DNA of 64,000 nt from Escherichia coli (GTDB lineage Bacteria > Pseudomonadota > Gammaproteobacteria > Enterobacterales > Enterobacteriaceae): NCBI RefSeq assembly GCF_051903065.1, contig NZ_CP178438.1; one strand, written 5' to 3'. A model generated the notes under the pieces. The model was not told the origin of the DNA and made no database searches. It saw only the letters and a list, made by a program, of their open reading frames with translations. A program made the position numbers and the translations under genes. How positions within the stretch are numbered: the stretch's first letter is position 1; each line of letters starts with the position of its first letter. Shown here in pieces: positions 12,387 to 32,669 of the stretch.

Positions 12387-12470
12387 GCCGCTTTATTATC
12401 GAGTTCGGTGACCGCCAGGACGGTCACTTCTGAGAAAAGGCATTTACACAGAATCTTAAACAGGTTCACG
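12387..12470 (+). mobile_element. IS256-family terminal fragment (3' end with terminal repeat), opposite orientation to adjacent transposase pseudogene
   Basis: Direct repeat of 622-700; terminal sequence ggcatttacacagaatcttaaacaggttcac mirrors the sequence at 12358-12386. Confidence 0.5.
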
Positions 12471-13108
12471 CAGCACTGGCGTCAGGGCATTGATTGTCGC
12501 TTTCACTGATTTGCTCCGGTTTCCCGTGGTCAGACTGCGCACTTTCTCCTTCAGCCTGTTCACACTCGTCAGGGCTATTTTCAGCTTCAACTGTTTGTGC
12601 CATGTCATACTGTACCCGAGGAACTTCTGCTCCCACGGGCGCGCCACCGCGCTCTTCTTCTCATTCACTTTCTGCTTCAGTTTGTTCTCTACGACGTCCT
12701 GATACCATCCAGCAATGGCCGCCCTGCGGCATGCCTTCCTGCCATTTCTCTCTTTGCCCGTCCCGGACTATTTCCTCTTTCAAGTAGCGGCGTATCAGCC
12801 TCAGCACCCGCCTGTCCTTTATCGTACTGGCCAGACGCGTCATCAGGAGTCTGTGATCCACACGGTCGAAGAACTTCTCCAGATTTATATCCACCACCCA
12901 CCGTTTGCTGCCCCGTATATAATGCTGTGCCTATTGCACTGCCTGCCATACGTTGCGTCCCAGCCGGAAACCGTGCCTAGAGTCTGAGAAGCTTTTGTCC
13001 ACGATGGCGCTTAAATGTTGCGCTATAGCTATAGCCTGCTGGATAGGCCTATCCACCACTGTCGGGATGCCTAAGGTTCTCACGCCGCCATCATGCAGCT
13101 CTGACGGA
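12471..13108 (-). pseudogene. Group II intron-encoded reverse transcriptase/maturase remnant (frameshifted, internally deleted, truncated at both ends by IS insertions)
   Basis: RT motifs GIPTVVDRPIQQA and DINLEKFFDRVDH; C-terminal maturase-like RPWEQKFLGYSMT; split across overlapping ORFs in different frames. Confidence 0.65.
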
Positions 13109-13172
13109 TGAGGTAGCCTGAGTTTAACGGACACTCCTTCCTGAAATAGAATGGCATCAGAAGGAGCTAATA

Positions 13173-13435
13173 ATGAGCAGAAAAACCCAACGTTACTCTA
13201 AAGAGTTCAAAGCCGAAGCTGTCAGAACGGTTCTTGAAAATCAACTTTCGATCAGTGAAGGCGCTTCCCGATTATCTCTTCCTGAAGGCACTTTAGGACA
13301 ATGGGTTACCGCCGCCAGAAAAGGGCTCGGTACTCTTGGTTCCCGCACGGTGGCTGAACTGGAATCTGAAATTCTGCAACTGCGTAAGGCGTTAAATGAA
13401 GCTCGCCTTGAGCGAGATATATTAAAAAAAGCCGT
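13173..13435 (+). pseudogene. IS600-like OrfA, disrupted by IS30 insertion 5 bp downstream of the A7 slippery run
   Basis: MSRKTQRYSKEFKAEAVRTV...ERDILKKA then IS30 left end; continuation [10 protein letters not shown] follows IS30 right end at 14657. Confidence 0.75.
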
Positions 13436-15564
<2,129 letters not shown>

Positions 15565-15573
15565 CCACTTCAT

Positions 15574-15897
15574 GTCGTTGAACTGCATAATACTGGCCCA
15601 AGCACCGCAACCAGTCTTGCTGCGCTTATCGCTTTATGTTCGATATTGCTGGCAAAACCAGTACAGGAACAGATGGTGGTGTTGGGCAGTATGACGCTTG
15701 GTGGAGTAATTAACCCGATACAAGATCTTGCTGCCAGTTTACAGCTCGCCTTCGACAGCGGCGCAAAACGAGTTCTGTTGCCGATGTCCTCGGCTATGGA
15801 TATTCCAACGGTTCCGGCAGAGTTATTTACCAAGTTTCAGGTGAGTTTTTACTCAGACCCGGTTGATGCTGTTTATAAGGCGCTGGGTGTGAATTAA
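15574..15897 (+). pseudogene. Lon-like protease C-terminal domain fragment (possibly BrxL-like), 5'-truncated by IS600-like element
   Basis: In-frame translation from IS boundary: ...NTGPSTATSLAALIAL...MTLGGVINPIQDLAASLQLAFDSGAKRVLLP... parallels Lon DGPSAG...[30 protein letters not shown]; no N-terminal ATPase region present. Confidence 0.5.
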
Positions 15898-15983
15898 TGT
15901 AGTAACTATTTTAATGAACTGGAGAGGACAATGGCTCAAGAACGTTCTGTAATTAAATTCATCAGACCGGTAATGACTCCAAC

Positions 15984-16487
15984 TTATTGATAGTGTTTTA
16001 TGTTCAGATAATGCCCGATGACTTTGTCATGCAGCTCCACCGATTTTGAGAACGACAGCGACTTCCGTCCCAGCCGTGCCAGGTGCTGCCTCAGATTCAG
16101 GTTATGCCGCTCAATTCGCTGCGTATATCGCTTGCTGATTACGTGCAGCTTTCCCTTCAGGCGGGATTCATACAGCGGCCAGCCATCCGTCATCCATATC
16201 ACCACGTCAAAGGGTGACAGCAGGCTCATAAGACGCCCCAGCGTCGCCATAGTGCGTTCACCGAATACGTGCGCAACAACCGTCTTCCGGAGCCTGTCAT
16301 ACGCGTAAAACAGCCAGCGCTGGCGCGATTTAGCCCCGACATAGCCCCACTGTTCGTCCATTTCCGCGCAGACGATGACGTCACTGCCCGGCTGTATGCG
16401 CGAGGTTACCGACTGCGGCCTGAGTTTTTTAAGTGACGTAAAATCGTGTTGAGGCCAACGCCCATAATGCGGGCTGTTGCCCGGCAT
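15984..16487 (-). CDS. insB: IS1 InsB (expressed as InsAB fusion by frameshift)
   Basis: 167-aa ORF overlapping insA in -1 frame. Confidence 0.85.
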
Positions 16488-16681
16488 CCAACGCCATTCA
16501 TGGCCATATCAATGATTTTCTGGTGCGTACCGGGTTGAGAAGCGGTGTAAGTGAACTGCAGTTGCCATGTTTTACGGCAGTGAGAGCAGAGATAGCGCTG
16601 ATGTCCGGCGGTGCTTTTGCCGTTACGCACCACCCCGTCAGTAGCTGAACAGGAGGGACAGCTGATAGAAACAGAAGCCAC
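16406..16681 (-). CDS. insA: IS1 InsA
   Basis: 91 aa [43 protein letters not shown]... Confidence 0.9.
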
Positions 16682-16890
16682 TGGAGCACCTCAAAAACAC
16701 CATCATACACTAAATCAGTAAGTTGGCAGCATCACCGGCTGTTTATGCTACCCGATTCTCAAATCAATTACCGAAAGCTTCTGTTCATCAACTAACTCAT
16801 TACTTTTAATGATGGGGCCCTTTCTGGGGCCCAAGAAATTAACAACGCTAACAAACAACATAAATAACAATAAATTAAATAAAAAATTTC

Positions 16891-16909
16891 ATTCCTGCAG
16901 GGGACACCA
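16891..16909 (+). repeat. Partial copy of argW tRNA-Arg 3' end (att-type direct repeat) marking island boundary
   Basis: attcctgcaggggacacca matches the 3' terminal 19 nt of tRNA-Arg(CCU) argW as recalled; no upstream tRNA body. Confidence 0.65.
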
Positions 16910-17350
16910 GATACCCTTCAAACCAAATCTACCTTCATCCCGTAAACGATGGGTTTGGCAGCACACTTGCCCTATATCTACTCATTTTTACTGCAACAGG
17001 TTGAAATCTCAGCACTGTCAGAAAGCGCTGATGACTAAACAGCCCTGGGCCGGGCGATGTAACCATCACACAGAATCCTGATAGCGAAATATGGCGTGAC
17101 TCGATACTTCACTCCGCAATGCATTCCTTGATGAATTCGCAGGCCCGTGATACACGCGACAGGTCGCTGAATGACGACAATGTCCTGGAAATCAGCGAAC
17201 CGTGTATCCGGAGTACATTTGAGCGACTGTACCAGAACATGAATGAGGTGTTTGGATTAGGCGATTATTAGCAGGGCTAAGCATTTTACTATTATTATTT
17301 TCCGGTTGAGGGATATAGAGCTATCGACAACAACCGGAAAAAGTTTACGT

Positions 17351-18598
17351 CTATATTGCTGAAGGTACAGGCGTTTCCATAACTATTTGCTCGCGTTTTT
17401 TACTCAGGAAGAAAATGCCAAATAGCAACATCAGGCAGACAATACCCGAAATTGCGAAGAAAACTGTCTGGTAGCCTGCGTGGTCAAAGAGTATCCCAGT
17501 CGGCGTTGAAAGCAGCACAATCCCAAGCGAACTGGCAATTTGAAAACCAATCAGAAAGATCGTCGACGACAGGCGCTTATCAAAGTTTGCCACGCTGTAT
17601 TTGAAGACGGATATGACACAAAGTGGAACCTCAATGGCATGTAACAGCTTCACTAATGAAATAATCCAGGGGTTAACGAACAGCGCGCAGGAAAGGATAC
17701 GCAACGCCATAATCACAACACCGATAAGTAATGCATTTTTTGGCCCTACCCGATTCACAAAGAACGGAATAATCGCCATGCACAGCGCTTCGAGTACCAC
17801 CTGGAATGAGTTGAGATAACCATACAGGCGCGTTCCTACATCGTGTGATTCGAATAAACCTGCATAAAAGACGGGAAAAAGTTGTTGATCAAAAATGTTA
17901 TAGAAAGACCACGTCCCAACAATAAATATGACGAAAACCCAGAAGTTTCGATCCTTGAAAACTGCGATAAAATCCTCTTTTTTTACCCCTCCCGCATCCG
18001 CCGCTACGCACTGGTGATCCTTATCTTTAAAACACATGTTGATCATCATAAATACAGCGCCAAATAGCGAGACCAACCAGAAGTTGATATGGGGACTGAT
18101 ACTAAAAAATATGCCGGCAAAGAACGCGCCAATAGCATAGCCAAAAGATCCCCAGGCGCGCGCTGTTCCATATTCGAAATGAAAATTTCGCGCCATTTTT
18201 TCAGTGAAGCTGTCAAGCAAACCGCAGCCCGCCAGATAACCCAGGCCAAAAAAGAGCGCACCCAGAATTAAACCTACAGAAAAATTGCTTTGCAGTAACG
18301 GTTCATAAACGTAAATCATAAACGGTCCGGTCAAGACCAGGATGAAACTCATACACCAGATGAGCGGTTTCTTCAGACCGAGTTTATCCTGAACGATGCC
18401 GTAGAACATCATAAATAGAATACTGGTAAACTGGTTGACCGAATAAAGTGTACCTAATTCCGTCCCTGTCAACCCTAGATGTCCTTTCAGCCAAATAGCG
18501 TATAACGACCACCACAGCGACCAGGAAATAAAAAAGAGAAATGAGTAACTGGATGCAAAACGATAGTACGCATTTCTGAATGGAATATTCAGTGCCAT
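17351..18598 (-). CDS. cscB: Sucrose:H+ symporter CscB (LacY-type MFS)
   Basis: 415 aa, N-terminus MALNIPFRNAYYRFASSYSFLFFISW; arrangement with cscK, cscA, cscR. Confidence 0.9.
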   Translation of the reverse strand: MALNIPFRNAYYRFASSYSFLFFISWSLWWSLYAIWLKGHLGLTGTELGTLYSVNQFTSILFMMFYGIVQDKLGLKKPLIWCMSFILVLTGPFMIYVYEPLLQSNFSVGLILGALFFGLGYLAGCGLLDSFTEKMARNFHFEYGTARAWGSFGYAIGAFFAGIFFSISPHINFWLVSLFGAVFMMINMCFKDKDHQCVAADAGGVKKEDFIAVFKDRNFWVFVIFIVGTWSFYNIFDQQLFPVFYAGLFESHDVGTRLYGYLNSFQVVLEALCMAIIPFFVNRVGPKNALLIGVVIMALRILSCALFVNPWIISLVKLLHAIEVPLCVISVFKYSVANFDKRLSSTIFLIGFQIASSLGIVLLSTPTGILFDHAGYQTVFFAISGIVCLMLLFGIFFLSKKREQIVMETPVPSAI

Positions 18599-18669
18599 AA
18601 TTACCTGCCTGTCGTTAAAAAATTCACGTCCTATTTAGAGATAAGAGCGACTTCGCCGTTTACTTCTCA

Positions 18670-19584
18670 CTATTCCAGTTCTTGTCGACATGGCAGCGCT
18701 GTCATTGCCCCTTTCGCCGTTACTGCAAGCGCTCCGCAACGTTGAGCGAGATCGATAATTCGTCGCATTTCTCTCTCATCTGTAGATAATCCCGTAGAGG
18801 ACAGACCTGTGAGTAACCCGGCAACGAACGCATCTCCCGCCCCCGTGCTATCGACACAATTCACAGACATTCCAGCAAAATGGTGAACTTGTCCTCGATA
18901 ACAGACCACCACCCCTTCTGCACCTTTAGTCACCAACAGCATGGCGATCTCATACTCTTTTGCCAGGGCGCATATATTCCGATCGTTCTGTGTTTTTCCA
19001 CTGATAAGTCGCCATTCTTCTTCCGAGAGCTTGACGACATCCGCCAGTTGTAGCGCCTGCCGCAAACACAAGCGGAGCAAATGCTCGTCTTGCCATAGAT
19101 CTTCACGAATATTGGGATCGAAGCTGACAAAACCTCCGGCATGCCGGATCGCAGTCATCGCAGTAAATGCGCTGGTACGCGAAGGCTCGGCAGACAACGC
19201 AATTGAACAGAGATGTAACCATTCGCCATGTCGCCAGCAGGGCAAGTCTGTCGTCTCTAAAAAAAGATCGGCACTGGGGCGGACCATAAACGTAAATGAA
19301 CGTTCCCCTTGATCGTTCAGATCGACAAGCACCGTGGATGTCCGGTGCCATTCATCTTGCTTCAGATACGTGATATCGACTCCCTCAGTTAGCAGCGTTC
19401 TTTGCATTAACGCACCAAAAGGATCATCACCGACCCGACCTATAAACCCACTTATTCCGCCTAATCTGGCGATTCCCACCGCAACGTTAGCTGGCGCGCC
19501 GCCAGGACAAGGCAGTAGGCGCCCGTCTGATTCTGGCAAGAGATCTACTACCGCATCCCCTAAAACCCATACTTTGGCTGACAT
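18670..19584 (-). CDS. cscK: Fructokinase CscK (PfkB/ribokinase family)
   Basis: 304 aa with PfkB signature ...DSTGAGDAFVAGLL...; between cscB and cscA. Confidence 0.9.
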   Translation of the reverse strand: MSAKVWVLGDAVVDLLPESDGRLLPCPGGAPANVAVGIARLGGISGFIGRVGDDPFGALMQRTLLTEGVDITYLKQDEWHRTSTVLVDLNDQGERSFTFMVRPSADLFLETTDLPCWRHGEWLHLCSIALSAEPSRTSAFTAMTAIRHAGGFVSFDPNIREDLWQDEHLLRLCLRQALQLADVVKLSEEEWRLISGKTQNDRNICALAKEYEIAMLLVTKGAEGVVVCYRGQVHHFAGMSVNCVDSTGAGDAFVAGLLTGLSSTGLSTDEREMRRIIDLAQRCGALAVTAKGAMTALPCRQELE

Positions 19585-19799
19585 TTTTTTCCCTTAAATT
19601 CATCTGACTTACGCATAGTGATAAACCTCTTTTTCGCAAAATCGTCATGGATTTACTAAAACATGCATATTCGATCACAAAATGTCATAGTTAACGTTAA
19701 CATTTGTGATATTCATCGCATTTATGAAAGTAAGGGACTTTATTTTTATAAAAGTTAACGTTAACAATTCACCAAATTTGCTTAACCAGGATGATTAAA

Positions 19800-21233
19800 A
19801 TGACGCAATCTCGATTGCATGCGGCGCAAAACGCACTAGCAAAACTTCATGAGCACCGGGGTAACACTTTCTATCCCCATTTTCACCTCGCGCCTCCTGC
19901 CGGGTGGATGAACGATCCAAACGGCCTGATCTGGTTTAACGATCGTTATCACGCGTTTTATCAACATCACCCAATGAGCGAACACTGGGGGCCAATGCAC
20001 TGGGGACATGCCACCAGCGACGATATGATCCACTGGCAGCATGAGCCTATTGCGCTAGCGCCAGGAGACGATAATGACAAAGACGGGTGTTTTTCAGGTA
20101 GTGCTGTCGATGACAATGGTGTCCTCTCACTTATCTACACCGGACACGTCTGGCTCGATGGTGCAGGTAATGACGATGCAATTCGCGAAGTACAATGTCT
20201 GGCTACCAGTCGGGATGGTATTCATTTCGAGAAACAGGGTGTGATCCTCACTCCACCAGAAGGAATCATGCACTTCCGCGATCCTAAAGTGTGGCGTGAA
20301 GCCGACACATGGTGGATGGTAGTCGGGGCGAAAGACCCAGGCAACACGGGGCAGATCCTGCTTTATCGCGGCAGTTCATTACGTGAATGGACTTTCGATC
20401 GCGTACTGGCCCACGCTGATGCGGGTGAAAGCTATATGTGGGAATGTCCGGACTTTTTCAGCCTTGGCGATCAGCATTATCTGATGTTTTCCCCGCAGGG
20501 AATGAATGCCGAGGGATACAGTTACCGAAATCGCTTTCAAAGTGGCGTAATACCCGGAATGTGGTCGCCAGGACGACTTTTTGCACAATCCGGGCATTTT
20601 ACTGAACTTGATAACGGGCATGACTTTTATGCACCACAAAGCTTTGTAGCGAAGGATGGTCGGCGTATTGTTATCGGCTGGATGGATATGTGGGAATCGC
20701 CAATGCCCTCAAAACGTGAAGGCTGGGCAGGCTGCATGACGCTGGCGCGCGAGCTATCAGAGAGCAATGGCAAACTCCTACAACGCCCGGTACACGAAGC
20801 TGAGTCGTTACGCCAGCAGCATCAATCTATCTCTCCCCGCACAATCAGCAATAAATATGTTTTGCAGGAAAACGCGCAAGCAGTTGAGATTCAGTTGCAG
20901 TGGGCGCTGAAGAACAGTGATGCCGAACATTACGGATTACAGCTCGGCACTGGAATGCGGCTGTATATTGATAACCAATCTGAGCGACTTGTTTTGTGGC
21001 GGTATTACCCACACGAGAATTTAGACGGCTACCGTAGTATTCCCCTCCCGCAGCGTGACACGCTCGCCCTAAGGATATTTATCGATACATCATCCGTGGA
21101 AGTATTTATTAACGACGGGGAAGCGGTGATGAGTAGTCGAATCTATCCGCAGCCAGAAGAACGGGAACTGTCGCTTTATGCCTCCCACGGAGTGGCTGTG
21201 GTGCAACATGGAGCACTCTGGCAACTGGGTTAA
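19800..21233 (+). CDS. cscA: Sucrose-6-phosphate hydrolase / invertase CscA (GH32)
   Basis: GH32 motifs WMNDPNG, FRDP, WECPD; start placed at MTQSRLH (ORF track begins 3 codons earlier at 19791). Confidence 0.9.
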   Translation: MTQSRLHAAQNALAKLHEHRGNTFYPHFHLAPPAGWMNDPNGLIWFNDRYHAFYQHHPMSEHWGPMHWGHATSDDMIHWQHEPIALAPGDDNDKDGCFSGSAVDDNGVLSLIYTGHVWLDGAGNDDAIREVQCLATSRDGIHFEKQGVILTPPEGIMHFRDPKVWREADTWWMVVGAKDPGNTGQILLYRGSSLREWTFDRVLAHADAGESYMWECPDFFSLGDQHYLMFSPQGMNAEGYSYRNRFQSGVIPGMWSPGRLFAQSGHFTELDNGHDFYAPQSFVAKDGRRIVIGWMDMWESPMPSKREGWAGCMTLARELSESNGKLLQRPVHEAESLRQQHQSISPRTISNKYVLQENAQAVEIQLQWALKNSDAEHYGLQLGTGMRLYIDNQSERLVLWRYYPHENLDGYRSIPLPQRDTLALRIFIDTSSVEVFINDGEAVMSSRIYPQPEERELSLYASHGVAVVQHGALWQLG

Positions 21234-21240
21234 CATAATA

Positions 21241-22236
21241 TCAGGTGGAACAACGGATCAACAGCGGGCAAGGGATCCGCGTCACACTTCCCCCTTCACG
21301 ACCTTCAATAATATGCAATGCAGCTTCCCGCCCGATAATGTCATGTGGAAGCTGAATTGTGGTCAGCGGCGGTAAAAACAGATGCCCGACGCCAACCAGA
21401 TTATCAAAGCCCATTACGGCGACATCCTGCGGGATACGTACCCCCTTAGCCAGGAGAACCTGATAAGCCACAAAGGCTGCGCGATCGTTACCACATATCA
21501 GAACATCAAAATCTGGTTTGCCCGATTTGAAGTGGTCATTGAGTAAACTTGCGAGATCGGTGTAGTGATCATCACCTGTTGCCATGTGAAATTGTTTCAC
21601 CTCAGCCAGATCTCGTCCAGCATCACGCCAGGCCTGCTCAAATCCCTGCCGACGATACCCTGTTGCCAACGCACTTTCCGGTAGCCAGAAGCATAACGGT
21701 TGACGATAGCCCGCCGCGAGCAAATGCTGTGTTGATTCATATTGTGCAGTGTAATCATCAGGGATATAACTGGGTAACGCTGGGTCATCCGCCACACAGT
21801 TCGCCAATACAATATTTTCACCATACAGAGACTCAGGTAGCGTGATATGTCGCAGCCCCATTGTAGTATAGATAATGCCATCCGGACGGTGGGCAAGCAG
21901 CTGACGTGCCGCGCGGGCAGCGTCATCTTCAGAAAAAATATTGATTAAAAAACTATTCCAGCCGAACTCGCTGGCGGTTTGCTCAATGGCAAGCAGAATA
22001 TCAACAGAGAAAGGAGTGGTAGCAGTGTCCTGCGCCAGCACGGCGAGAGTCGACGGCTTACGTCCTTGAGCGCGCATCTTACGGGCGGAAAGATCAGGAA
22101 CATAATTCAGGGTCTGGATTGCCTGCAATACGCGGTCACGCGTTGCAGGACGCACAGATTCTGCATTATGCATCACCCGGGAGACTGTCATCATCGACAC
22201 TCCCGCCAGGCGTGCGACATCCTTTAATGAAGCCAT
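21241..22236 (-). CDS. cscR: Sucrose operon repressor CscR (LacI family)
   Basis: HTH MASLKDVARLAGVSMMTVSRV; start placed at internal ATG 22236 (ORF track extends 62 codons upstream). Confidence 0.85.
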   Translation of the reverse strand: MASLKDVARLAGVSMMTVSRVMHNAESVRPATRDRVLQAIQTLNYVPDLSARKMRAQGRKPSTLAVLAQDTATTPFSVDILLAIEQTASEFGWNSFLINIFSEDDAARAARQLLAHRPDGIIYTTMGLRHITLPESLYGENIVLANCVADDPALPSYIPDDYTAQYESTQHLLAAGYRQPLCFWLPESALATGYRRQGFEQAWRDAGRDLAEVKQFHMATGDDHYTDLASLLNDHFKSGKPDFDVLICGNDRAAFVAYQVLLAKGVRIPQDVAVMGFDNLVGVGHLFLPPLTTIQLPHDIIGREAALHIIEGREGGSVTRIPCPLLIRCST

Positions 22237-22466
22237 ACCCAAGCCGTTTGCCGTAAAACGGGCACTGTAGCAGAAACAGACGTCACTGGCGAGATCCAAC
22301 GCCCTATCACCTGACACGGCAATACAATAAAAAATAACAATAATTCCCGGACAATTGTCCCCAATTCCGCCTCTGTTCTCGCCAACGAGTAACCATATAG
22401 GCAAGTAAGTAAAACATGCCAACTGGCATCGCCAACCTGGAGAAGAAAATATAAATATGGATCATT

Positions 22467-27874: not shown

Positions 27875-30800
27875 ATGAAGTTTTTACCCTATATTTTTCT
27901 TCTCTGTTGTGGTCTTTGGTCGACCATAAGTTTCGCAGACGAAGATTACATCGAATATCGTGGCATCAGTAGTAACAACCGTGTCACACTTGATCCACTA
28001 CGTCTGAGCAACAAGGAATTACGTTGGTTAGCGAGCAAAAAAAATCTTGTGATTGCAGTACATAAGTCCCAAACGGCTACGTTGTTGCATACCGATTCGC
28101 AGCAACGGGTTCGTGGTATTAATGCTGATTATTTAAATCTTTTAAAAAGAGCGTTAAATATCAAATTAACACTCCGGGAATACGCCGATCATCAAAAAGC
28201 AATGGACGCGCTGGAAGAAGGTGAAGTCGATATAGTGTTATCACATTTAGTTGCTTCGCCGCCTCTTAATGATGACATTGCTGCAACCAAACCACTGATA
28301 ATTACCTTTCCGGCGCTGGTCACCACCCTTCACGATTCAATGCGACCGCTTACCTCATCAAAACCAGTAAATATTGCTCGAGTAGCAAATTATCCCCCTG
28401 ACGAGGTAATTCATCAATCATTTCCAAAAGCAACAATTATCTCTTTTACAAATTTATATCAGGCATTAGCATCCGTCTCAGCCGGACAGAATGATTACTT
28501 TATTGGTAGTAACATCATTACCAGCAGTATGATTTCCCGCTATTTCACTCACTCCTTAAATGTAGTGAAATATTATAACTCACCGCGTCAATATAATTTT
28601 TTCTTGACCAGAAAAGAATCTGTCGTTCTTAATGAAGTACTCAATCGATTTGTTGATGCTTTGACAAATGAAGTTCGCTATGAAGTATCACAAAATTGGC
28701 TTGATACAGGAAACCTGGCCTTTCTGAACAAACCATTAGAACTCACTGAACATGAAAAACAGTGGATTAAGCAGCATCCCGATTTAAAGGTGCTGGAAAA
28801 TCCTTACTCGCCCCCCTATTCTATGACGGATGAAAATGGCTCGGTTCGGGGCGTTATGGGGGACATTCTTAATATTATTACCTTGCAAACAGGTTTAAAT
28901 TTTTCTCCGATCACCGTTTCACACAATATCCATGCTGGAACACAGCTGAATCCCGGCGGATGGGATATATTACCCGGTGCTATTTATAGTGAAGATAGAG
29001 AAAATAATGTTTTATTTGCTGAAGCCTTCATAACAACGCCTTACGTTTTTGTCATGCAAAAAGCGCCTGACAGTGAACAAACATTAAAAAAAGGAATGAA
29101 AGTTGCCATTCCATATTATTATGAGCTTCATTCGCAATTAAAAGAGATGTATCCGGAGGTAGAGTGGATAAAAGTCGATAACGCCAGCGCTGCATTTCAC
29201 AAGGTCAAGGAAGGCGAACTTGATGCTCTGGTCGCGACACAGTTAAATTCACGTTACATGATCGACCATTACTATCCTAATGAACTTTATCATTTTCTTA
29301 TTCCCGGCGTTCCGAATGCATCGCTTTCGTTCGCTTTTCCTCGCGGAGAACCGGAACTTAAGGATATTATTAATAAAGCACTGAATGCAATCCCCCCAAG
29401 CGAAGTTCTGCGCCTGACCGAAAAATGGATTAAAATGCCCAATGTGACCATTGACACATGGGACCTCTATAGCGAGCAATTTTATATTGTTACGACATTA
29501 TCCGTTTTATTAGTTGGCAGTAGCCTTTTATGGGGATTCTACCTGTTACGCTCAGTTCGTCGTCGTAAAGTCATTCAGGGTGATTTAGAAAACCAAATAT
29601 CATTCCGGAAAGCACTCTCGGATTCCTTACCGAATCCAACTTATGTTGTAAACTGGCAAGGTAATGTCATTAGTCATAATAGTGCTTTTGAACATTATTT
29701 CACTGCGGATTACTACAAAAATGCAATGTTACCATTAGAAAACAGTGACTCCCCCTTTAAAGATGTTTTTTCTAATGCGCATGAAGTCACAGCAGAAACG
29801 AAAGAAAATCGAACAATATACACACAGGTATTTGAAATTGATAATGGCATCGAGAAAAGATGCATTAATCACTGGCATACATTATGCAATCTGCCAGCCA
29901 GCGATCATGCTGTTTATATTTGTGGTTGGCAAGATATTACCGAGACGCGTGATTTAATTCATGCACTCGAAGTAGAGAGAAATAAAGCGATCAATGCAAC
30001 TGTCGCAAAAAGCCAGTTTCTGGCAACAATGAGTCACGAAATAAGAACACCAATTAGCTCCATTATGGGCTTCCTGGAACTTCTGTCGGGTTCTGGTCTT
30101 AGCAAGGAGCAACGTGTGGAGGCGATTTCACTTGCCTACGCCACCGGACAATCACTCCTCGGCTTAATTGGTGAAATCCTTGATGTCGACAAAATTGAAT
30201 CGGGTAACTATCAACTTCAACCACAATGGGTCGATATCCCTACTTTAGTCCAGAACACTTGTCACTCTTTCGGTGCGATTGCTGCAAGCAAATCGATCGC
30301 ATTAAGTTGCAGCAGTACGTTTCCTGAACATTACCTGGTTAAGATCGACCCTCAGGCGTTTAAGCAGGTCTTATCTAATTTACTGAGCAATGCTCTCAAA
30401 TTTACCACCGAGGGGGCAGTAAAAATTACGACCTCCCTGGTTCACATTGATGACAACCACGCTGTAATCAAAATGACGATTATGGATTCTGGAAGTGGAT
30501 TATCACAGGAAGAACAACAACAACTGTTTAAACGTTATAGCCAAACAAGTGCAGGTCGTCAGCAAACAGGTTCTGGTTTAGGCTTAATGATCTGCAAAGA
30601 ATTAATTAAAAACATGCAGGGTGATTTGTCATTAGAAAGTCATCCAGGCATAGGAACAACATTTACGATCACAATCCCGGTAGAAATTACCCAACAAGTG
30701 GCGGCTGTCGAGGCAAAAGCAGAACAACCTATCACACTACCTGAAAAGTTGAGCATATTAATCGCGGATGATCATCCGACCAACAGGCTATTACTCAAAC

Positions 30801-31468
30801 GCCAGCTAAATCTATTAGGATATGATGTTGACGAAGCCACTGATGGTGTGCAAGCGCTACACAAAGTCAGTATGCAACATTATGATCTGCTTATTACTGA
30901 CGTTAATATGCCGAATATGGATGGTTTTGAGTTGACTCGCAAACTCCGTGAGCAAAATTCGTCCTTACCCATCTGGGGGCTTACAGCCAACGCACAGGCT
31001 AACGAACGTGAAAAAGGGTTAAATTGCGGCATGAACTTATGTTTGTTCAAACCGTTGACCCTGGATGTACTGAAAACACATTTAAGTCAGTTACACCAGG
31101 TTGTGCATATTGCACCTCAGTATCGCCACCTTGATATCGAAGCCCTGAAAAATAATACGGCGAACGATCTACAACTGATGCAGGAGATTCTCATGACTTT
31201 CCAGCATGAAACGCATAAAGATCTACCCGCTGCGTTTCATGCACTAGAAGCTGGCGATAACAGAACTTTCCATCAATGTATTCATCGCATCCACGGTGCG
31301 GCTAACATCCTGAATTTGCAAAAGTTGATTAATATTAGCCATCAGTTAGAAATAACACCTGTTTCAGATGACAGTAAACCTGAAATTCTTCAGTTGTTGA
31401 ACTCTGTAAAAGAACACATTGCAGAGCTGGACCAGGAGATTGCTGTTTTCTGTCAACAAAATGACTAA
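27875..31468 (+). CDS. evgS: Hybrid sensor histidine kinase EvgS
   Basis: 1197 aa with periplasmic solute-binding domains, HisKA (SHEIRTP), receiver and HPt domains. Confidence 0.95.
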   Translation: MKFLPYIFLLCCGLWSTISFADEDYIEYRGISSNNRVTLDPLRLSNKELRWLASKKNLVIAVHKSQTATLLHTDSQQRVRGINADYLNLLKRALNIKLTLREYADHQKAMDALEEGEVDIVLSHLVASPPLNDDIAATKPLIITFPALVTTLHDSMRPLTSSKPVNIARVANYPPDEVIHQSFPKATIISFTNLYQALASVSAGQNDYFIGSNIITSSMISRYFTHSLNVVKYYNSPRQYNFFLTRKESVVLNEVLNRFVDALTNEVRYEVSQNWLDTGNLAFLNKPLELTEHEKQWIKQHPDLKVLENPYSPPYSMTDENGSVRGVMGDILNIITLQTGLNFSPITVSHNIHAGTQLNPGGWDILPGAIYSEDRENNVLFAEAFITTPYVFVMQKAPDSEQTLKKGMKVAIPYYYELHSQLKEMYPEVEWIKVDNASAAFHKVKEGELDALVATQLNSRYMIDHYYPNELYHFLIPGVPNASLSFAFPRGEPELKDIINKALNAIPPSEVLRLTEKWIKMPNVTIDTWDLYSEQFYIVTTLSVLLVGSSLLWGFYLLRSVRRRKVIQGDLENQISFRKALSDSLPNPTYVVNWQGNVISHNSAFEHYFTADYYKNAMLPLENSDSPFKDVFSNAHEVTAETKENRTIYTQVFEIDNGIEKRCINHWHTLCNLPASDHAVYICGWQDITETRDLIHALEVERNKAINATVAKSQFLATMSHEIRTPISSIMGFLELLSGSGLSKEQRVEAISLAYATGQSLLGLIGEILDVDKIESGNYQLQPQWVDIPTLVQNTCHSFGAIAASKSIALSCSSTFPEHYLVKIDPQAFKQVLSNLLSNALKFTTEGAVKITTSLVHIDDNHAVIKMTIMDSGSGLSQEEQQQLFKRYSQTSAGRQQTGSGLGLMICKELIKNMQGDLSLESHPGIGTTFTITIPVEITQQVAAVEAKAEQPITLPEKLSILIADDHPTNRLLLKRQLNLLGYDVDEATDGVQALHKVSMQHYDLLITDVNMPNMDGFELTRKLREQNSSLPIWGLTANAQANEREKGLNCGMNLCLFKPLTLDVLKTHLSQLHQVVHIAPQYRHLDIEALKNNTANDLQLMQEILMTFQHETHKDLPAAFHALEAGDNRTFHQCIHRIHGAANILNLQKLINISHQLEITPVSDDSKPEILQLLNSVKEHIAELDQEIAVFCQQND

Positions 31469-31475
31469 ATAGCGG

Positions 31476-31500
31476 CTCCCACAATGTTCAAATGTGGGAG
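31476..31500. terminator. Hairpin between convergent evgS and yfdE
   Basis: 8-bp stem ctcccaca/tgtgggag with 9-nt loop. Confidence 0.45.
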
Positions 31501-31523
31501 CTATTTACCAGCACATCTTACAT

Positions 31524-32669
31524 TTATGATGAGAACTCCTGGCGAATTTGTTCCCCATGCTGGTCGAGCGTTGCCGCTCCCGGCATAACATGCGGGTCCG
31601 CGCAGCCACTGATTTTTATCGGATTACCCGGCATCATTATTCCCCCGGCTTCAATCAACATATTTCTCGCCTGAGTTTGTGGCAAATTAATGGCCTCAGC
31701 CACACTTAATAACGGCGCGACGGGCACACCAACTTCATGTATTCTGGCTAACCAAACTTCAGCTGCCTGTGTTTTTAACGTCCGCTCAATATATTGTTTA
31801 AGAATAGCCTGGTTTTGTACGCGTAAAATATTGCTGCTAAATCTGGGATCATTAACCAGTTCCGTAAGCTCCAGTGCCTGGCATAACGCAGAGAAAAGCT
31901 TGTCATTACCACAACAAATCGTAATCGGCTTATCCTGAGTATCGAAAACATCAAAAGGTGCCATGTAGGGGTGGCGATTTCCCAAACGTTGTGGTGACTT
32001 CCCAGTCGCGATATATGCCATCAGCCCGTGCTCCAGAAAACTCAGCGTGGCATCAAACATCGCTATATCGACATGCGCCCCTCTCTGGCTCTTTTCGCGG
32101 CCATAAAGTGCACTCACTATTCCACTGAATAAATAGACACCGCCACATAGATCCGCAAGAGAAGTGCCAACGCGCACTGGCGGAGCATCAGGGTATCCCG
32201 TTTCCATCATTATCCCGCTCATTGCCTGAATGATGGTATCGTAGGCAGGAGCATCTTTTAGCGGACCGGTATGTCCGAAACCTGACGATGAAGCATATAT
32301 GAGGCGCGGGTTGATTTCTTGTAACCTTTCCCATGAAAACCCCAGTTTTTCCATTGTACCTGGGCGAAAATTCTCAGCTAATACATCAGCTTGTTTAAGC
32401 ATATTTATAAATATACTTTTATCGTGATCATTCTTTAAATCAAGAACCACACTCTCTTTACCATGATTAATAAAACTGTAATAGAGTGACTGTCCATCCA
32501 CATAGGGACCAAATGTGCGGGTATCATCACCATGACCTGGTGGCTCAACTTTAATTACCCTTGCGCCCATATTACAAAGAAGTTGAGTTCCGAAAGGTCC
32601 ATTAAGGACATGTGTCATATCGATAACTAATAAGCCTTCAAACGGCCCTTTGCTTTCATTATTTGTCAT
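31524..32669 (-). CDS. yfdE: Acetyl-CoA:oxalate CoA-transferase (CaiB/BaiF family)
   Basis: 381 aa from ATG at 32669 (MTNNESKGPFEGLLVIDMTH); ORF track starts 13 codons upstream. Confidence 0.9.
   Translation of the reverse strand: MTNNESKGPFEGLLVIDMTHVLNGPFGTQLLCNMGARVIKVEPPGHGDDTRTFGPYVDGQSLYYSFINHGKESVVLDLKNDHDKSIFINMLKQADVLAENFRPGTMEKLGFSWERLQEINPRLIYASSSGFGHTGPLKDAPAYDTIIQAMSGIMMETGYPDAPPVRVGTSLADLCGGVYLFSGIVSALYGREKSQRGAHVDIAMFDATLSFLEHGLMAYIATGKSPQRLGNRHPYMAPFDVFDTQDKPITICCGNDKLFSALCQALELTELVNDPRFSSNILRVQNQAILKQYIERTLKTQAAEVWLARIHEVGVPVAPLLSVAEAINLPQTQARNMLIEAGGIMMPGNPIKISGCADPHVMPGAATLDQHGEQIRQEFSS

Follow-up and report, generated by a model that had tools for sequence, protein, structure and literature searches.

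IS1 promotes adjacent deletions by intramolecular replicative transposition, as reportedly described by Reif and Saedler in 1975 for the gal region of Escherichia coli K-12. The locus described here lies in a 64,000-nt stretch of E. coli DNA (contig NZ_CP178438.1, hereafter the window) and resembles those deletions in that a complete IS is kept, the deletion starts at the IS end, no duplication is present and the loss is of kilobase scale. It differs from them in that natural isolates are compared here, whereas the gal deletions were selected in the laboratory, and in that the structure would fit recombination between two IS1 copies as well.

Adjacent deletion and recombination between two IS copies are both documented causes of a missing target-site duplication (PMC11708052). 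The cases from the E. coli long-term evolution experiment in that study share with our locus an IS centred in a deletion, unrelated flanks and the same three candidate routes. They concern IS150 and IS5 in lines with known ancestors, whereas our locus involves IS1 and its ancestral state is deduced from a related genome.

The third point of comparison is the CP4-type islands at tRNA genes, such as CP4-44 (yeeR-flu-yeeS-yeeT-yeeU-yeeV-yeeW) and KplE1/CPS-53 at argW. Like these, the island in the window is bounded by a repeat of a tRNA 3′ end, here that of argW, and the block that it lacks has the CP4-type gene order GTPase, Ag43, DUF932, antirestriction, JAB/RadC, DUF987, YeeU. Unlike them, it has been decayed by IS911, IS30, IS66, IS903B and IS1, holds only a stump of brxL and has a truncated integrase. 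It is not the KplE1 prophage of K-12.

A complete IS1A lacking a target-site duplication

The coordinates of the features around the element are collected in Table 1. In all 64 kb the IS1 end consensus is matched only twice, at the two termini of this element, with none expected in shuffled sequence. The copy has the length of the family (∼768 bp) and its imperfect inverted repeats of ∼23 bp. The insA and insB′ frames match the Pfam families Zn_ribbon_InsA, HTH_Tnp_IS1 and DDE_Tnp_IS1 (PF03811, PF12759 and PF03400) with E-values from 1e-21 to 2e-78, and the −1 frameshift motif of the A6C type, TTAAAAAAC, was found in this copy. In the identical RefSeq record the joined coding sequence 15984–16681 is annotated as that of an IS1A transposase, intact and read with a programmed frameshift. 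The copy thus passes every structural test for the IS1 family, and the 8–9-bp target duplication is the sole feature absent. Such a duplication is a record of how a copy arrived and of its history, not of what the element is.

Table 1. Features of the IS1 locus, in window coordinates
Feature	Position	Strand	Basis
IS30, intact, inserted in the IS911 remnant	13498–14649		annotation
IS911 remnant bounding the brxL fragment	14659–15564	+	ORF list, annotation
brxL 3′ remnant, 330 nt (Lon-like S16 protease of a BREX system), cut on the left by the IS911 fragment	15568–15897	+	annotation, Pfam
Opening 12 codons of an unannotated ORF (25 codons when whole), AT-rich spacer	15932–15968	+	intact version in relatives
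Left 9-bp flank, catcagacc; ends at the final island base before the deletion (ZF8-1 L009:17404)	15960–15968	+	alignment
Complete IS1A, 768 bp	15969–16736	minus	inverted repeats, Pfam matches, RefSeq annotation as intact
IS1 right-end inverted repeat (IRR), GGTAATGACTCCAACTTATTGAT	15969–15991	+	IS1 end consensus match
insB′ frame; the A6C frameshift links it to insA, and the fusion is the transposase	15984–16487	minus	open frame, Pfam, motif
insA, 91 aa	16406–16681	minus	open frame, Pfam match
IS1 left-end inverted repeat (IRL), GGTGATGCTGCCAACTTACTGAT	16714–16736	minus	IS1 end consensus match
Right 9-bp flank, ggctgttta; starts at the first base past the deletion (ZF8-1 L009:30788)	16737–16745	+	alignment
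YeeU-family antitoxin gene remnant, last 73 nt	16737–16809	+	alignment with relatives
19-bp direct repeat of the argW 3′ end, attR-type, right island boundary	16891–16909	+	exact match

The initial annotation had described a complete IS1 of this length with differing 9-bp flanks, and this description holds. The span that it gave, 15935–16745, does contain the element but takes in flanking bases on both sides. Alignment with relatives that lack IS1 places the breakpoints exactly at 15968/15969 and 16736/16737. A matching repeat might have appeared had the boundaries been set a few bases off. We therefore looked for direct repeats of 7–14 bases with the boundaries shifted from −6 to +6, and found none. 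The best match between the flanks over all shifts was five of seven bases, which reflects only the CCGG formed at both ends of the IS.

Strain ZF8-1 carries an IS1A copy at the far end of its island (L009:361–1128), in the opposite orientation, that is identical to the element over all 768 bp. Strain 23CRST031 has no IS1 at that upstream position.

Relatives with an intact island and the DNA missing from the window

A 2.8-kb query across IS1 gave a full-length match at 100% identity in two complete E. coli genomes, 23CRST031 (NZ_AP045800.1) and 23CRST027, the alignment in the latter being one base shorter. The window as a whole is identical to these two genomes. Both are human faecal isolates, and the record of 23CRST031 gives Ecuador as the country. 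Each of the two genomes holds ∼36–38 IS1 matches, and IS1 is thus abundant in this lineage. Among 5,426 complete E. coli genomes the left and right IS1 junctions were found only in these two sisters.

The two unique flanks were also searched separately, and were found in 589 genomes (left) and 241 genomes (right). Five genomes, Combat11I9, CRE1540, THO-010, AH25 and 201609, carry both flanks in the same orientation at a distance of 13.35–13.4 kb. In Combat11I9 the window positions 1–13074 and 15013–15968 are collinear up to L006:28900 and the window resumes at L006:42305, leaving 13,404 bp in between. The sequence of this strain reads ttcatcagacc/ttgcctctcc at the left breakpoint and tttatat/ggctgttta at the right one (slashes mark the breakpoints). 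The alignments break precisely there, so the IS1 boundaries are exact. The closest relative found was ZF8-1, in which L009:1437–17404 corresponds to window 1–15968 with three mismatches and no gaps, including the IS30 inserted in IS911. Here the window resumes at L009:30788, so that 13,383 bp are lacking, which in the ZF8-1 chromosome are NZ_CP178597.1 1433229–1446611. Neither Combat11I9 nor ZF8-1 has IS1 at either site, and in both the flanks are collinear.

These comparisons with uninterrupted versions of the junction bear out the earlier reading of an IS1-associated deletion. They support the view that IS1A marks the loss of ∼13.4 kb from within a decayed genomic island that is integrated at the argW tRNA gene, and this explains why the element has no target-site duplication. 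The absent duplication was in this case a reliable signal of a hidden deletion. The endpoint of the deletion coincides exactly with the end of IS1, and the element itself is kept intact. At the right breakpoint IS1 cuts into an antitoxin gene that the relatives carry complete, so the form in the window is the derived one; for the same reason we rejected an insertion in the relatives in place of a deletion here.

According to the annotation of the intact relatives, the missing DNA comprises ∼14 island genes. They encode two zinc-ribbon proteins, an inovirus-Gp2-family protein, an Hha/YmoA-type protein, a helix-turn-helix protein, two hypothetical proteins, a GTPase, an Ag43/Cah autotransporter adhesin, a DUF932 protein, an antirestriction protein, a JAB/RadC protein and a DUF987 protein, followed by the 5′ 335 nt of the 408-nt gene for the YeeU-family type IV antitoxin. 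Neither the window nor the 50 kb that precede it contain any part of the block. The breakpoints, the size and identity of the missing DNA and the integrity of IS1 are direct observations.

On the left, the island ends in the brxL stump and an AT-rich spacer. The stump aligns with the end of the intact brxL of the BREX-1 system in strain 1916D18. The stretch 13173–15897 is a nested case of BREX decay in which the last 330 nt of brxL remain; none of brxA-C, pglX and pglZ is present with the stump in that stretch. A gene truncated by IS1 had been proposed on this side, starting at 15935. The ATG at 15932 is preceded by a good ribosome-binding site, and in the intact relatives it opens a 25-codon ORF (MAQERSVIKFIRPCLSIHEYKNTYI) that is annotated in none of those examined, so the left side offers no evidence of a truncated gene. 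The idea of a truncation is sound for the right side of IS1, where the gene that is cut is that of the YeeU-family antitoxin.

The left site is AT-rich, with 32% GC within ±30 bp. The spacer occupies 15898–15968 in the window, and the equivalent stretches are L003:14126–14256, L008:9130–9279 and, in ZF8-1, L009:17334–17483. Two further IS1 copies lie in this same spacer, 56 bp further right in EC05 and 79 bp further right in 1916D18. Thus the AT-rich 80–150 bp past the brxL stop codon hold IS1 at three positions in three strains, in the same orientation and each time without a target-site duplication. In EC05 the element connects the spacer with the distant locus yicL; in 1916D18 ∼6.2 kb are missing, as far as the GTPase gene. 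The spacer looks like a recurrent spot of IS1 entry and rearrangement and a preferred target.

Routes to the deletion

We regard an adjacent deletion by IS1 as the most likely route, a preference that we hold with middling confidence. In a first step IS1 would have entered at one breakpoint, more likely the one in the AT-rich spacer just past the brxL remnant. It would then have undergone an intramolecular transposition of the cointegrate type into a site 13.4 kb away on the same molecule, within the YeeU-family antitoxin gene. The stretch from the IS end to the new target would have been lost as a circle, leaving IS1 in place with unrelated 9-bp flanks. We infer both this order of events and the choice of a transposase-driven route over RecA-dependent recombination between two IS1 copies. 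The adjacent deletion is favoured because it takes one insertion and one intramolecular event, as against two insertions and a recombination.

The recombination route is a less probable but serious possibility. Two IS1 copies would have inserted in the same orientation, one at 15968 and the other at 16737, each with its own 9-bp duplication, and RecA-dependent recombination would have removed the intervening DNA together with one IS1. This predicts the structure that is observed, with the left flank derived from one copy and the right flank from the other. The ∼36–38 IS1 matches per genome make nearby pairs plausible, and the route is one recognised in PMC11708052. Against it stand the three events required instead of two, and the finding that no genome or metagenome contig in our searches has IS1 at either site. 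The element also bears no sign of a mosaic, being fully identical to the single IS1A copy in ZF8-1, an argument that is weak if the copies of the lineage are all identical. The final structure would be the same after an adjacent deletion and after recombination between two directly repeated copies, and the sequence alone fits both equally.

An intermediate would carry IS1 between 9-bp duplications at one breakpoint or the other. None of the 5,426 complete E. coli genomes had such a structure, and exact-pattern scans of metagenome contigs for a simple IS1 insertion at either site gave no matches. Adjacent deletion and two-copy recombination had both been named in the initial annotation, and they are inseparable because neither collection holds an intermediate. 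Some genomes seemed at first to share one junction with the window, but none of them is an intermediate. EC05 does not share the junction, its IS1 lying 56 bp further right and being joined to yicL; in CE0007a and isolate 602 the IS1 copies lie at other places, between yfdQ and yfdR and beside cscB. TUM13936, considered as an IS-free version of the junction, has a different remnant at argW and matches only in the backbone from 16895.

The same lack of intermediates would be expected had the two ends of an incoming IS1 attacked sites 13.4 kb apart, inserting and deleting in one step without any IS1 ever being resident at either site. PMC11708052 reports IS movements centred on deletions without target-site duplications that are hard to assign to the classical routes. 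We consider such a one-step event improbable. With two genomes to represent the lineage and a single close relative for the island, missing intermediates are weak evidence; moreover, PMC11708052 attributes every case of the long-term evolution experiment to adjacent deletion, and for IS1 a one-step mechanism is not established. If it were true, the locus would be an example from natural isolates of the IS-centred deletion without duplication proposed in that paper, and the AT-rich 80-bp spacer past brxL would be a recurrent entry point, with three duplication-less IS1 copies in three strains.

It is very unlikely that the 13.4 kb were moved rather than lost, in which case IS1 copies would have been the partners of an inversion or translocation and the junction seen here one of its ends. 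EC05, in which the same brxL-side region is joined through IS1 to the distant yicL, offers a parallel. However, the flanks in the window keep the order and orientation of the intact island, which an inversion would not give, the block occurs neither in the window nor in the 50 kb next to it, and a query with the left flank matches a single place in 23CRST031. A simple insertion with a decayed duplication, wrongly set IS boundaries or an assembly mis-join, to which a multicopy element such as IS1 can lead, is hardly credible given that the IS-free relatives have the flanks 13.4 kb apart, that no repeat appeared at any offset tested, that both junctions recur unchanged in two complete genomes with separate assemblies, and that three differences from ZF8-1 in 16 kb leave no room for a decayed 9-mer.

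The event is ordinary and already known biology, an IS1-associated deletion of the standard kind in a tRNA-linked island of the CP4 type. It adds a further step to the decay of the island through IS elements, by which genes for an Ag43-type adhesin, an antirestriction protein, a RadC-like protein and an antitoxin have gone, and its importance goes little beyond bookkeeping. Mildly useful by-products are the recurrent IS1 target spot past brxL and the near-identical island in strains with different backbones.

The argW island and its surroundings

The repeat of argW that had been noted about 150 bp from IS1 is real. It is an exact copy of the 3′ end of the strain's own argW, lies 154 bp from the element and is the right boundary of the island. 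The argW gene itself is found ∼6.3 kb upstream of the window start, beside an integrase gene cut by IS903B. Relatedness to ZF8-1 changes at the repeat, with three mismatches in the 16 kb to its left and 26 in the 3.4 kb to its right, starting at 16924. TUM13936, which has a different occupant at argW, matches the window from 16895 on at 99.8%. The site thus has both marks of a tRNA-associated island, a 3′-end repeat at the far boundary and a change of relatedness there. The repeat is the true boundary between island and backbone.

The island to the left of IS1 is heavily decayed and holds an autotransporter gene, fragments of IS3, IS66, IS4 and IS21 elements and the IS30 in the IS911 remnant. 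The chromosomal backbone begins to the right of the island, with the csc sucrose genes, dsdA, emrYK and evgAS. ZF8-1 is a chicken isolate from China; its island is near-identical to that of the window (three mismatches in ∼16 kb), and the chromosome past the argW repeat differs by ∼0.7%. This suggests a horizontal exchange of the island, or of a block holding it, that is younger than the divergence of the backbones.

In the intact relatives (L006:41970–42839) the argW repeat comes directly after the YeeU-family antitoxin gene, and no cognate toxin gene of the CbtA/YeeV type is present there. A short DUF4942 (YeeW-like) ORF at 17089–17271 lies just outside the repeat and is also seen in strains with other occupants of argW. 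It may be left over from an older island.

The genes cscB, cscK, cscA and cscR (17351–22422) adjoin the island boundary where the dsdC-dsdX region is expected, and a partial dsdX survives before dsdA. This placement of the csc genes is common to several of the strains examined. Further into the backbone, evgS (∼27875–32532 in the window; L001:32907–37564) is split by a frameshifted IS903B at ∼28478–29445, and the EvgS/EvgA acid-resistance system is therefore probably inactive in this strain.
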